Both the position numbers and the translations under genes were made by a program. A DNA stretch of 64,000 nucleotides, from assembly GCF_988242995.1 (NCBI RefSeq), contig NZ_OZ547043.1. One strand, 5' to 3'. A model generated the notes under the pieces. That model was not told where the DNA came from, ran no database searches, and was given only the letters and a program-made list of their open reading frames with translations. The stretch's first letter is position 1, and each line of letters starts with the position of its first letter. Shown here piece by piece: positions 51,973-57,850 of this stretch.

Positions 51973-52704
51973 TTAGGGGGCATGAAAGATGACTTTATAA
52001 CCTTGCTCACCCCAGTGTTGTAAAAGTTCGTTTTGCCTTCTCGTTGGTGCCATGCCTGTCCAGACAATCAATGTTTGCGTTGGGAACAGTTCCGGGCGCG
52101 GCGATTCAATGGGATCAGCAAGAACAGAAATGTGCCATCCTGACAATGATAAACGCCATGCTTCCAGCCACAATCGTGCTCTCTCTTCAACATTCCACGC
52201 CATCAGAATGGCTTCTTTACCGGGCTTACGGCGCATTTCGAAAAGTGAGGCTGCTGCGTATTCAATTAATGCGCCGTCAAACATACTGCTCATAATGCGG
52301 GAGGTGTTGTGATCAAGCACGAGACGCTGACGAACAGGAAGGTAAACATGATTAATCAATTGATCTACCGGGTACTCTCGACCCAGTGAAATAATTCTCG
52401 CGCGTAGTTTGGCAGGATTAGCCATACGAAGAATTGACATCATCTCTTCTTGCAGGCGGCTCCAGTCATCTTCCGTATCCTGGCTGGTGGTTTCCAGTAA
52501 TGCTTTAACTTTGCCTACAGGGACGCCATTACTTATCCAACGCTTGATCTCTTCGATGCGTTGTATGTCTTCTTCATCAAAGAGTCGGTGTCCGCCTTCA
52601 CTGCGCTGTGGTTTTAACAAACCGTAGCGGCGTTGCCAGGCCCGGAGAGTGACAGGATTAATCCCGCAACGTTCAGCAACATCACCAATGCTGTAATAAG
52701 CCAC
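51973..52704 (-). CDS. bluR: MerR-family transcriptional repressor BluR
   Basis: 243 aa; N-terminal Mer[33 protein letters not shown]. Confidence 0.88.
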
Positions 52705-52908
52705 AATTCCTCCTTGCGGTCACAAATCTCCGTCGCCTGTACACGACCCAATAATACTTTGTACAATATACGCTAAAATTGTACAAAGTATAAATAAGAT
52801 TTCAGCTAAATTGAATGAAACATTATTTTTAATGTGGATTAAATTTAAACATAACGTATTCATTTTCACGATGATTTACTGAAATTATGTGAAATAATAT
52901 GCTGAAAA

Positions 52909-54120
52909 TTATTTTTTCTCTGGCCACGCAACTGAAGGGATACCATTCAATTTAGCTTTCGCAAACAGATCTCCCTGAAACATCTCAATTCCTGCAGATT
53001 CAAGCCACATCCACTCTTCTGGTGTTGCCACGCCCATAGCAGAGACTTGAATTTCAAGTGATGTACAGCATTTCATGATCGCCTGAATAATTGCCTGTCG
53101 TGGTCCGCTTTTATGAACATTGGTAATCAATTCCTGACTGATTTTAATTCTGTCAGGCTGGAAGCGTGACAGGAGTAACAAACCAGCAAAACCTGCGCCA
53201 AAATGATCAATTGCTACACTGATACCGGCAGCCTTTAGCGATTTAACCGCTTCGGCAAACTCATCAAACCGAGATATGACTTCACTTTCAGTAAATTCAA
53301 CGATGATTTGTTCAGGCACCAGACCATTGGCCTTTATTTCATCAAGTAAAAAAGAGACTGCGTCAGGCTCGTTAACCAGGGTCATAGGTAATAGATTGAT
53401 TGATATCATTTTATCACCGAGCTCAAGTGCGTGTGCCATCGCGAATGCAAGCGCCTTACTTTTGAGATCCGCTTTGTAGATTTCCCCGTCTTTACGCTGC
53501 CCAACCGCTATAGCTGATGGGCTATCTTCATTTTTTTGCACAATGGCTTCAAAAGCGATTATCCGCCGCGATAAGGGATCGACAATAGGATGAAAGGCAA
53601 AGTGGTCGTTTATAGTTGGTGAAAGGGTACAGGAATCAAGTTCTTTATCAGATCCGTCAGCGATAAAAAGCCAGGAGTCTTCGGCAGGGATCTCGAAATA
53701 GGTTGCTTGTTCGGTTGCAAGGACAAAAGTACGAAAAAATTGTAGCGCTCTGTCATCATAAGTTAGCTGAAATTTTGATGTGCCTTTGTCGAATACGGCC
53801 TGTAAAACGTCATCTCGCTCGTGCAGGCGCAAATCAAATAATTCCATTCCCGCTTTGCCAAAACGGCGAGCAGGCGCGTAATCGCACATCAGCTCAACAA
53901 TATTATAGTGCCGTGGATCCTGGCATATAGCCCGATATATCATTTTAACCTGTTCTTCCGGACCTTCCAGAAGCTGGAAAAAATGAGAACCATTAAACAG
54001 TAAGATCCCTGTTACGTCAGACTGCATGTTCCTGCGATTTGCTATCGAAACCATTTCTTCGATTTTTTTGACAGGTTCGTCGTCACGTATATGGCTACGA
54101 TAAATAAGGGTGGTAAGCAT
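52909..54120 (-). CDS. bluF: blue-light sensor BLUF-EAL protein BluF (anti-repressor of BluR)
   Basis: 403 aa from MLTTLIYRSH start inside ORF 52909..54198; N-terminal BLUF and C-terminal EAL-like domain. Confidence 0.88.
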   Translation of the reverse strand: MLTTLIYRSHIRDDEPVKKIEEMVSIANRRNMQSDVTGILLFNGSHFFQLLEGPEEQVKMIYRAICQDPRHYNIVELMCDYAPARRFGKAGMELFDLRLHERDDVLQAVFDKGTSKFQLTYDDRALQFFRTFVLATEQATYFEIPAEDSWLFIADGSDKELDSCTLSPTINDHFAFHPIVDPLSRRIIAFEAIVQKNEDSPSAIAVGQRKDGEIYKADLKSKALAFAMAHALELGDKMISINLLPMTLVNEPDAVSFLLDEIKANGLVPEQIIVEFTESEVISRFDEFAEAVKSLKAAGISVAIDHFGAGFAGLLLLSRFQPDRIKISQELITNVHKSGPRQAIIQAIMKCCTSLEIQVSAMGVATPEEWMWLESAGIEMFQGDLFAKAKLNGIPSVAWPEKK

Positions 54121-54433
54121 TAACTGTCCAGGGTAATGGGAGAGGCGAGAGTAAGACGGTAACAGACATATCTTCCGGTGTCTTTCTTTTAATACCAAAA
54201 CATAACTGTTTCTTTACATTGATAAAAAATGGAAAAAGTTGAAGATGAGTTAGCGAAAATTCTTGTATAGGTTGTCATTTAAATGATGCAATATTTTTTA
54301 TCATAACCTGTTGTTTTATATGTATTAGCACTAAATGCAAAAAATTAATTTATCATTCTGTACACATATTTCGTACAAGTTTGCTATTGTTACCTCACTT
54401 AACATTGATTAACATTTTTAACAGAGGCGTAGC

Positions 54434-55641: not shown

Positions 55642-55976
55642 AACTTGAGTAAGGTTATAGAATAAACATCAGCTGTATCATCATGCTGGTGCAAAGTGAG
55701 CATTTCAGGCGTTATGCTTTCTTAATATATCCGCAATATCAGGGGGCAAACAGGAATGGAGAGCGCTCGTTTTCCATTCTTGACGCCTGATATCCCACCT
55801 AATTTGTTTAATTCTGACTACATTGTGCTCAATAATTAATAGGTTAGATGAAGATGGAGAAAATTTTATCTTCGGCGTGGATATTTCTTATGCTCTCTAC
55901 CATGCTCTCTGTAGATGCCAGTGCGAGCGAATGAATGGCATTTTCATGTATTAAACCCTTTGGCCGGGACAAGCAA

Positions 55977-57500
55977 ATGCGCAATACACTCATACCCATC
56001 TTCATTGCGATATGCTTGTTTATAACCGGTGTCACTATTTTGAACATCCAGCTCTGGTATTCCGCAAAAGCAGAGTACCTGGCGGGAGCAAGATATGCAG
56101 CCAACAATATCAATCATATACTTGAAGAAGCGTCACAGGCGACTCAAACGGCGGTTAACATTGCCGGGAAGGAATGCGACCTCGAGGAGCAATATCAGCT
56201 TGGCACTGAAGCAGCTCTGAAACCTCACCTGCGCACAATCATCATTCTCAAACAGGGAACGGTCTGGTGTACATCCTTACCGGGGAATCGGGTCCTACTG
56301 TCTCGTATTCCTGTTTTCCCGGACAGTAATTTACTGCTGGCTCCGGCAATCGACACCGTTAATAGATTACCTATCCTGCTCTATCAGAGCCAATTTGCAG
56401 ATACGCGCATTTTGGTTACGATAAGTGATCAGCATATTCGCGGGGCGCTTAATGTACCCTTGAAAGGGGTAAGGTATGTATTACGCGTGGCAGATGACAT
56501 TATTGGACCTACGGGTGATGTGATGACGCTTAATGGACACTATCCCTATACCGAGAAGGTTCACTCCACAAAATATCATTTCACTATTATCTTTAACCCG
56601 CCGCCACTCTTTAGCTTCTACAGACTTATCGATAAAGGCTTTGGGATTTTGATATTTATTCTGTTAATCGCCTGCGCCGCTGCCTTCCTGCTTGATAGGT
56701 ATTTCAATAAAAGCGCAACGCCTGAAGAGATCCTGCGACGGGCTATAAATAATGGGGAGATCGTCCCATTTTACCAACCTGTGGTAAATGGTCGGGAAGG
56801 GACATTGCGGGGAGTTGAGGTGTTAGCCCGCTGGAAACAACCTCACGGTGGATATATATCACCCGCGGCATTTATTCCACTTGCTGAAAAATCCGGATTA
56901 ATCGTTCCGCTTACGCAAAGCCTGATGAATCAGGTTGCCAGACAGATGAACGCTATCGCGAGTAAACTGCCGGAAGGTTTTCATATTGGGATTAATTTTA
57001 GCGCCTCGCATATTATTTCGCCGACATTTGTCGACGAGTGCTTAAATTACCGTGACAGTTTTACCCGTCGCGATTTAAACCTCGTTCTGGAAGTTACCGA
57101 GCGTGAGCCATTAAATGTTGATGAAAGTCTGGTTCAGCGGTTGAACATTCTGCATGAAAATGGTTTTGTCATCGCGCTGGATGATTTCGGTACTGGCTAC
57201 TCAGGGCTTTCTTATCTGCATGACCTGCATATTGATTATATCAAAATTGATCACAGTTTCGTTGGCCGCGTAAACGCAGACCCAGAATCAACTCGGATTC
57301 TGGATTGTGTATTGGATCTGGCGCGTAAACTTTCGATCAGTATCGTCGCTGAAGGTGTCGAAACGAAAGAACAACTTGACTATCTGAATCAAAATAATAT
57401 CACATTTCAGCAGGGTTATTATTTCTATAAACCGGTAACATACATCGACCTGGTCAAAATTATCCTTTCTAAACCGAAGGTGAAGGTTGTGGTTGAGTGA
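55977..57500 (+). CDS. pdeG: c-di-GMP phosphodiesterase with periplasmic CSS-type sensor and EAL domain
   Basis: 507 aa from MRNTLIPIF start; N-terminal and mid transmembrane segments; C-terminal EAL domain. Confidence 0.85.
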   Translation: MRNTLIPIFIAICLFITGVTILNIQLWYSAKAEYLAGARYAANNINHILEEASQATQTAVNIAGKECDLEEQYQLGTEAALKPHLRTIIILKQGTVWCTSLPGNRVLLSRIPVFPDSNLLLAPAIDTVNRLPILLYQSQFADTRILVTISDQHIRGALNVPLKGVRYVLRVADDIIGPTGDVMTLNGHYPYTEKVHSTKYHFTIIFNPPPLFSFYRLIDKGFGILIFILLIACAAAFLLDRYFNKSATPEEILRRAINNGEIVPFYQPVVNGREGTLRGVEVLARWKQPHGGYISPAAFIPLAEKSGLIVPLTQSLMNQVARQMNAIASKLPEGFHIGINFSASHIISPTFVDECLNYRDSFTRRDLNLVLEVTEREPLNVDESLVQRLNILHENGFVIALDDFGTGYSGLSYLHDLHIDYIKIDHSFVGRVNADPESTRILDCVLDLARKLSISIVAEGVETKEQLDYLNQNNITFQQGYYFYKPVTYIDLVKIILSKPKVKVVVE

Positions 57501-57631
57501 AAATCGATCAGTAAGGCCATAGTGCGGTGTAATTATAGACAGCTAATTAGCTCGTTGCCTCTTGTTACTATTGTTCATTATTTTGTTTGCTATAATTGTT
57601 TGAAAGTTTTGACAGGATTGCCATTAGTAGC

Positions 57632-57850
57632 ATGAACAATAGTAATAATCTGGATTATTTCACTCTCTATATCATCTTTTCCATTGCATTTATGCTGATC
57701 ACTCTCCTGGTCATCCTTATTGCAAAACCCAGTACCGGGCTGGGAGAAGTGCTTGTGACGATAAATTTGCTTAATGCCCTTGTTTGGCTGGCGATCAATC
57801 TGATTAATCGATTAAGGGAAAGACTCGTCAGCCACAGGGATCAGCAATAA
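57632..57850 (+). CDS. ymgF: small inner-membrane protein YmgF
   Basis: 72 aa; two hydrophobic helices; synteny. Confidence 0.75.
   Translation: MNNSNNLDYFTLYIIFSIAFMLITLLVILIAKPSTGLGEVLVTINLLNALVWLAINLINRLRERLVSHRDQQ

Follow-up and report, generated by a model that had tools for sequence, protein, structure and literature searches.

The DNA analyzed here, hereafter called the window, is a stretch of 64,000 nt from contig NZ_OZ547043.1 of the NCBI RefSeq assembly GCF_988242995.1. Its positions 51973-57850 are the intact chromosomal BluR/BluF-Ymg module of Escherichia coli, which comprises the repressor gene bluR, the anti-repressor gene bluF and the divergent operon ycgZ-ymgA-ariR-ymgC. On the promoter of bluR lies a palindrome that we predict to be an operator for BluR itself. 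The module, the ycgZ promoter and the BluR operator at that promoter were known already; the predicted auto-operator on the bluR promoter is apparently undescribed, and it is conserved across Enterobacterales. That BluR binds this palindrome, and that the effect of the binding is negative, is what we infer from the sequence.

Taken as a whole, the account given below seems to us highly probable. That is, the module works as described in the literature, a direct repeat of TTAACATT in the ycgZ leader is likely due to chance, and the palindrome at bluR would be the site of BluR autorepression. We lean, somewhat more than evenly, toward a general form of the last point: regulators of the BluR type may repress their own genes through TTGTACA-N13(12-15)-TGTACAA, a palindrome conserved on the promoters of these genes; this element may predate the recruitment of BluF, and BluR may use operators of two geometries.

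The bluR palindrome and its predicted recognition

The palindrome, which the original prediction had missed although no element of the BluR type in 51973-57850 is stronger, is a perfect 14-bp inverted repeat, ATACTTTGTACAAT-N10-ATTGTACAAAGTAT, at 52754-52791 (arms 52754-52767 and 52778-52791). It carries TTGTACAA twice, in the form TTGTACAA-N12-TTGTACAA, and the two TGTACA hexamers within it, at 52760-52765 and 52780-52785, stand 14 nt apart. No perfect inverted repeat of this length arose in 1000 shuffles. The pair TGTACA-N12..14-TGTACA occurs once in the window, and none of 100 shuffles produced it.

Primer extension has placed the 5' ends of the transcripts from bluR, bluF and ycgZ at 54, 30 and 36 nt, in that order, upstream of their start codons (PMC3509220), and TATATT has been named as the -10 of the bluR promoter (bioRxiv 10.1101/2025.10.20.683477). 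A consensus scan of the window agrees with both the published start and the published -10. It gives a sigma-70 promoter on the minus strand at 52765-52794, with the -35 TTTATA (52794-52789), an 18-bp spacer, the -10 TATATT (52770-52765) and a start near 52758. Relative to this start the palindrome spans -33 to +4, and its hexamers, at -7 to -2 and -27 to -22, bracket the -10, so that the palindrome covers both the -10 and the start site of bluR. Because of this overlap in E. coli, repression by occlusion would be expected.

Both arms of the palindrome are invariant in six diverse E. coli strains. The 60-bp piece that contains it has 3846 identical copies among 4971 records, and the identity is 95-99% in all the others. 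A third TGTACA hexamer stands in the bluR leader at 52738-52743 (about +16 to +21), with its centre 22 bp from the centre of the proximal hexamer. It reads TCTACA in the strain FDAARGOS_1259, and four other loci, from three genera, likewise have a GTACA 19-21 nt downstream.

The palindrome lies about 120-155 nt past the bluF stop codon, and the RNA read from the bluF side would fold as a 14-bp stem (-16.9 kcal/mol, z = -6.1), as a 3'-terminal hairpin of the bluF transcript would. In that case the palindrome would be a terminator or a stabilizer of the transcript and not a protein site. We regard this as hardly credible. The hexamer sequence is invariant across genera and does not covary, the spacing ranges from N7 to N15, and the mapped bluR start lies inside one of the arms. 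As an intrinsic terminator of bluF the palindrome was rejected, since it has neither a GC-rich stem nor a U-run (the AT-rich stem is followed by UAUUGGG, and no terminator-like site was called in 52600-54500) and since the element is also kept where the upstream gene is divergent, as in Pantoea and Erwinia.

The conservation of the element beyond E. coli was examined as follows. Fifteen BluR orthologues were aligned, and this alignment was used to retrieve 80 loci (802 kb), one genome per species. In 27 of the 80 loci, tblastn showed the synteny ariR-(ymgA)-ycgZ divergent from bluF-bluR; these loci belong to Citrobacter, Pseudocitrobacter, Kluyvera, Enterobacter, Cedecea, Pseudescherichia, Pluralibacter, Klebsiella, Lelliottia, Phytobacter, Buttiauxella and Kosakonia. 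Exact TGTACA-N5..16-TGTACA pairs stand in only two kinds of place in the 802 kb: one is the ycgZ promoter, and the other lies upstream of a BluR-like gene, about 76-89 nt from its start codon. The pair of the second kind was found in 34 other species, some of which lack bluF. Its spacer was N13 in 26 cases, N12 and N14 in three cases each, and N15, N10 and N7 in one case each.

In these bluR-upstream pairs the hexamers do not vary, the spacer has an A+T content of 86% and no conserved sequence, and the flanks are unconserved beyond a few bases. The proximal hexamer aligns as a -35 in most other genera (TTGTAC, 17 nt, TAGTTT). Upstream of bluR in Kosakonia and in Enterobacter species, the spacing of the site is N7, the geometry proven for BluR binding at ycgZ. 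The element also accompanies BluR-like genes without bluF in Pantoea, Erwinia and Mixta, as well as distant homologues in Rouxiella, Rahnella and Yersinia. As it is thus present in Erwiniaceae and Yersiniaceae that lack bluF, the element would predate the recruitment of BluF.

The BluR-like gene of Pantoea, Erwinia and Mixta (loci L011, L013, L014, L016-L018, L020, L021, L027, L032-L034, L043, L045 and L064, at about 4850-5000) encodes a protein that is 54-67% identical to BluR and nearer to it than MlrA is. Neither bluF nor ycgZ is nearby, which indicates that BluR-like regulators exist outside the blue-light context. The same gene is divergent from a 187-aa helix-turn-helix gene of the XRE family, and TGTACA-N13-TGTACA stands in the spacer that the two genes share. 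In Pseudescherichia vulneris and Escherichia sp. ESNIH1 (L012 and L015; 4936-5000) the gap between bluF and bluR is only 65 bp, without any TGTACA pair, which suggests co-transcription of the two genes at these loci and loss of the separate bluR promoter and its operator.

We compared the palindrome with known operators of related sequence. With the MlrA box of csgD (AAAATTGTACA-N12-TGTACAATTTT; Ogasawara 2010, quoted in PMC3509220 and PMC9662190) it shares the inverted TTGTACA half-sites, the AT-rich spacer and the long spacing. BluR binds this long-spaced box in vitro, if weakly (PMC3509220), which we count in favour of an auto-operator. The spacing itself differs, being N14 in E. coli and mostly N13 elsewhere (N12 in only three cases) against the 12 nt of the MlrA box. 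Moreover, the MlrA box is an activator site far upstream, whereas the palindrome overlaps the core promoter and is tied to bluR-like genes, not to mlrA or csgD.

Classical MerR operators are dyads within a 19-20-bp spacer between -35 and -10. Both BluR-type sites likewise overlap the core promoter, and the ycgZ spacer is over-long at 18 bp. In contrast to the classical operators, the bluR palindrome is centred at about -14.5, over the -10 and +1, with 20 bp between the centres of its hexamers, a wider distance than a typical MerR dyad has. In addition, BluR acts solely as a repressor (PMC3509220).

The box of RcdA (YbjK), TTGTnTACA, and the rcdA operator TTGTGTACAttTGTACACAA share the TGTACA core, and RcdA footprints lie in the bluF-ycgZ spacer (PMC3535384). 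RcdA is of the TetR family, however, and its box has another register and a spacing of N2.

The palindrome might accordingly be bound by another protein that reads TGTACA, either MlrA or RcdA, and the expression of bluR would then be linked to the curli/CsgD network. TTGTACA half-sites are common to the MlrA box and, in part, to the RcdA box; the long spacing is nearer to the N12 of MlrA than to the N7 of BluR, and RcdA binds the adjoining bluF-ycgZ spacer (PMC3535384). Nevertheless, we consider such a reading unlikely, while granting it an appreciable minor chance. In Erwiniaceae and Yersiniaceae the element goes together with BluR-like genes, and it was found upstream of mlrA in none of 33 enterobacterial loci with an MlrA orthologue. 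Its occurrence beside the regulator gene speaks for recognition by that regulator itself. As to RcdA, the register TTGT-n-TACA misfits TTGTACAA, and genomic SELEX (systematic evolution of ligands by exponential enrichment) of RcdA lists the ycgF-ycgZ spacer and not the ycgE-ycgF spacer, that is, no signal at the bluR promoter was reported (PMC3535384).

Several points weigh against autorepression by BluR. The hexamers are separated by N14 in E. coli, by N13 in most species and by N7 in the published BluR site, and the use of three spacings by one dimer needs explaining. RcdA and MlrA likewise recognize sequences that contain TGTACA. The sole reported input at the bluR-bluF spacer is SrsR (YgfI), which was found by genomic SELEX and activates bluR modestly (PMC9181523). 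Finally, the searchable literature yielded no report of BluR binding to its own promoter or of an effect on its expression, although the ycgE::lacZ work of 2009 in Genes & Development may hold one. The SrsR box gCAGgTTTTGC was not seen when the 204-bp bluR-bluF spacer was read, a reading made with no pattern search. Nor did we find a report of genome-wide BluR binding within the literature that could be searched. In a PPTP-seq study based on CRISPR (clustered regularly interspaced short palindromic repeats) interference, the guide for bluR was lost, and a paper on a tunable transcription factor library mentions BluR for growth rate only.

On balance we still favour the BluR auto-operator. A dyad-symmetric site over the core promoter of a factor's own gene, conserved with that gene across taxa, is the mark of an autoregulatory operator, and this is what was found at bluR. 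An autoregulatory operator would be the simplest reading because the dyad lies over the gene's own core promoter, because it contains the known BluR half-site, and because element and gene occur together across three bacterial families. From centre to centre, the hexamers are separated by 13 bp at ycgZ and by about 19-20 bp at bluR; the use of both by one protein would imply either two modes of binding or cooperative binding of more than one dimer.

The bluF-ycgZ control region

The divergent control region between bluF and ycgZ measures 313 bp (54121-54433). A length of 235 bp (54199-54433) had been given in the original prediction; this could not be upheld, since bluF is annotated to begin with the ATG at 54120 and its published transcription start is 30 nt further upstream, at about 54150. 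A bluF start at the TTG at 54198, which would make the longest open reading frame (ORF), was rejected, as the gene begins with the ATG at 54120 in RefSeq and K-12 and its transcription was mapped to start downstream of 54198. On the plus strand, the ycgZ promoter has an extended -10 (TGc TATTGT, 54382-54390; PMC6900184) and a start near 54398 (PMC3509220). It is sigma-S dependent with a spacer of 18 bp (PMC3509220), in place of the 19-bp MerR-type spacer once considered for it.

The BluR operator of this promoter is TGTACAcatatttCGTACA at 54359-54377 on the plus strand. It consists of TGTACA (54359-54364, -39 to -34), seven nucleotides and CGTACA (54372-54377, -26 to -21), and it carries the published direct GTACA...GTACA and inverted TGTAC...GTACA motifs. 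The stretch that had been proposed as a BluR site from the letters alone, TGTACAcatatttcgTACAAG in the register TGTACA-N9-TACAAG, is present at 54359-54379. It proved to be the published operator (PMC3509220), with the register one base off TGTACA-N7-(C/T)GTACA. We equate the two because of the start at about 54398, the positions of the hexamers relative to it, and the identity of 54343-54393 to the K-12-like sequence. Compared with the K-12 operator of PycgZ (PMC3509220), the window has the same motif at the same place over the -35 and the spacer, followed by the same 36-nt leader, and there is no substantive difference.

In the published work, DNase I footprinting defined the BluR site as a direct GTACA...GTACA repeat overlapping an inverted TGTAC...GTACA repeat, over the -35 and part of the spacer (PMC3509220). 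Point mutations in either half-site abolish the binding of BluR in the electrophoretic mobility shift assay (EMSA), and point mutations in the half-sites derepress ycgZ, as read by lacZ, as fully as a bluR knockout does (PMC3509220). In the window, TGTACA-N8-GTACA occurs once, and none of 100 shuffles matched this. The operator is invariant in six diverse E. coli strains.

In 19 further species of enterobacteria the ycgZ promoter has an exact TGTACA-N7/8-TGTACA pair (N7 in 16, N8 in 3). Of the 27 syntenic loci, most of those without an exact pair keep the promoter-proximal hexamer, and its partner is degenerate or one base off. The sequence around the hexamers has otherwise freely diverged across genera. 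At the level of sequence, this phylogenetic footprint over 27 loci is an independent validation of the published operator. The comparison of the pairs shows that the CGTACA of E. coli is a derived form of the second TGTACA, and that the ancestral form was TGTACA-N7-TGTACA.

A shift of the promoter relative to this operator was also observed. In most genera (L008-L040) a -10 of the type TGTATAACTT follows the second ycgZ hexamer by about 15-17 nt. The ycgZ promoters of Escherichia and Citrobacter have lost about 9 bp, and their -10 (TGcTATTGT) abuts the operator. The BluR site has thereby moved from "-35 and upstream" to "-35 and spacer".

The other known inputs were located in the same region. 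MarA binds 62 bp upstream of the ycgZ start, as shown by chromatin immunoprecipitation sequencing, EMSA and in vitro transcription (PMC6900184). Its marbox in the window is GCACTAAATGCAAAA at 54328-54342 on the plus strand (-70 to -56, centre about -62/-63), which matches the consensus GCAHWWWWTGYYAAA in forward orientation at 14 of 15 positions. One base differs between the window and K-12, within the W positions, and a GCACTTTTTGCTAAA-like box is retained at the ycgZ promoter in many genera. For RcdA, whose box is TTGTnTACA, the SELEX fragment of the ycgF-ycgZ spacer starts at TTGTATAGA (PMC3535384). This start maps to TTGTATAG(A/G), from window position 54253 onward, where two RcdA-box-like sequences, TTGTATAGG and TTGTCATTT, stand in tandem on the plus strand (54253-54270).

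The stretch around these boxes varies among E. coli strains. The bluF-proximal and middle spacer (54240-54320), including TTGTATAGG and TTGTCATTT, is far more variable than the ycgZ core promoter (54325-54395), which is nearly invariant. Another likeness was seen between CTTTACATTGATAAA, upstream of the bluF promoter (54212-54226), and CTTAACATTGATTAA, in the ycgZ leader (54398-54412), which agree at 13 of 15 positions. Pseudocitrobacter and Kluyvera (L004 and L005) have ACATTGATTTAACATT at the bluF-proximal position. This likeness of CTTTACATTGATAAA, CTTAACATTGATTAA and ACATTGATTTAACATT may reflect a shared AT-rich element or a coincidence.

The second BluR site proposed in the original prediction was the direct repeat TTAACATT-GA-TTAACATT (TTAACATTgaTTAACATT). 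The repeat does exist, at 54399-54416 on the plus strand, that is, at +2 to +19 in the 5' leader of ycgZ, and it has no supported function. As an operator it was rejected. It lies outside the footprinted and mutationally defined BluR site and has no GTACA. Moreover, of 1000 dinucleotide shuffles made from the 313-bp region, 85 (8.5%) held a close direct repeat no shorter than 8 nt, and the repeat is not conserved outside Escherichia. In Citrobacter, the nearest genus, CTTAATACTCACCAGCATTTT stands at the aligned position, and no other genus among the loci compared has the repeat. Within the species it is identical in five of six diverse E. coli strains; the most divergent strain, E500002, has TTAACAAC-GT-TTAACATT, with three substitutions in or next to the first copy. 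The ycgZ leader RNA showed no unusual structure (z = +0.44).

Could the repeat nevertheless be a real operator, either a second BluR site or a direct-repeat site of a response regulator with a 10-bp period, which acts as a roadblock just after the ycgZ start? The 8-mer repeat is exact, has a period of 10 bp and stands directly downstream of +1, and the TTAACA cores are retained even in the divergent E500002. The TTAACATT units presumably resemble half-sites of the OmpR, CpxR and PhoP type. YcgZ has been linked to the control of ompF (PMC5491885). We nevertheless hold this reading to be quite improbable in view of the shuffle frequency, the missing half-site and the poor conservation given above, and because mutation of the two upstream half-sites alone derepresses ycgZ fully (PMC3509220). 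The TTAACATT repeat is probably a lineage-specific and fortuitous feature.

Genes of the module and their setting

The eight genes of the module are intact and in K-12 order, and the system is a known one, the much-studied E. coli switch for blue light and biofilm, mapped experimentally between 2009 and 2019; on both counts the original prediction was right. The gene content was supported by the ORFs, by the RefSeq annotation of a K-12-like genome (aligned at 97.1%), by tblastn and by Pfam. The module region aligns over its full length to E. coli chromosomes with 95-99.8% identity (97-99.8% for the annotated genomes). It was found in 5097 of 5426 complete E. coli genomes, and the RefSeq annotation has the same genes in the same order. 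Of the roughly 5000 matches that this chromosomal module has in the E. coli collection, 12 are on records labelled as plasmids.

On the minus strand, bluR (ycgE; 51973-52704) has a GTG start and encodes the MerR-family repressor BluR, of the MlrA subfamily (243 aa), as supported by the ORF, RefSeq and identity to K-12. The domains found in Pfam are those of the MlrA subfamily: MerR_1 (1.4e-18), MlrA_helical (5e-29) and MlrA_C (3e-32). The gene adjoins bluF, divergent from the ycgZ-ymgA-ariR operon, with like synteny in the 27 loci of other genera mentioned above. Both the BluR protein and the ycgZ operator of the window are identical in sequence to those of K-12, where BluR binds and represses PycgZ and BluF releases it in blue light (PMC3509220).

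Also on the minus strand, bluF (ycgF; 52909-54120), with a start that agrees with RefSeq, encodes the anti-repressor BluF (403 aa), in which a BLUF domain (1.8e-24) is followed by a degenerate EAL domain (5.8e-49). The EAL domain reads EAI for EAL, and all eight non-consensus residues looked for are present (H177, I193, Q195, T247, H306, S328, M362 and A365). These are the residues that were reverted to the consensus in BluF-M8 by Tschowri 2012 (PMC3509220).

The other genes lie on the plus strand: ycgZ (54434-54670; 78 aa, Pfam YmgB family), ymgA (54713-54985; 90 aa), ariR (ymgB; 55014-55280; 88 aa, Pfam YmgB/AriR 6.8e-26), ymgC (55393-55641; 82 aa), pdeG (ycgG; 55977-57500), which encodes a phosphodiesterase of 507 aa with Pfam CSS-motif and EAL domains, and ymgF (57632-57850; 72 aa). 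All of these are supported by the ORF and RefSeq. The identity to K-12 by tblastn is 100% for BluR, 98% for BluF, 97% for YcgZ, 92% for YmgA, and 99% for AriR and for YmgC. YmgA is thus the most divergent protein of the module, and RefSeq calls it a "hypothetical protein" in strains near the window and a "two-component-system connector protein YmgA" in K-12-like strains.

Variation of the module was seen in other E. coli genomes. In a set of them (loci L085, hits H20-H23) pdeG is truncated at the N-terminus and annotated as a partial pseudogene (query coverage 89%), and IS3, ISVsa5 or IS5 is inserted inside the module in others (H6, H12, H17, H18 and H24). The module lies in an AT-rich block, which had been noted from the sequence and is real: the GC content is 0.365-0.46 across 48-62 kb, compared to about 0.50-0.53 outside. 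Just 3' of ymgF, an autotransporter ORF of 887 aa is intact at 58250-60913 on the plus strand. The corresponding ycgH of the K-12-like genome is a pseudogene, frameshifted and with an internal stop. The strain of the window thus appears to retain a functional YcgH.

Proposed autorepression in the blue-light and cold switch

According to the literature, BluR sits on the two TGTACA-type hexamers over the -35 and spacer of the sigma-S-dependent ycgZ promoter and blocks the transcription of ycgZ-ymgA-ariR-ymgC. Blue light and cold are reported to activate BluF, which then binds BluR and takes it off the DNA; MarA, through the marbox, and RcdA are described as further inputs. To this scheme we would add that BluR binds the palindrome on its own promoter and, by covering the -10 and the start site, keeps down its own transcription; this autorepression, too, would be relieved by BluF. 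The release by BluF would raise the synthesis of BluR, which would make a feedback loop within the switch.

Since BluR is toxic when elevated (PMC3509220), tight self-limitation is plausible, and autorepression, if true, would explain how cells keep BluR low. How MerR proteins of the MlrA type read DNA could be tested simply with the two classes of spacing, 13 bp and about 19-20 bp between the hexamer centres. If BluR does repress itself, the blue-light and cold switch of E. coli would contain a negative feedback loop that shapes its dynamics.

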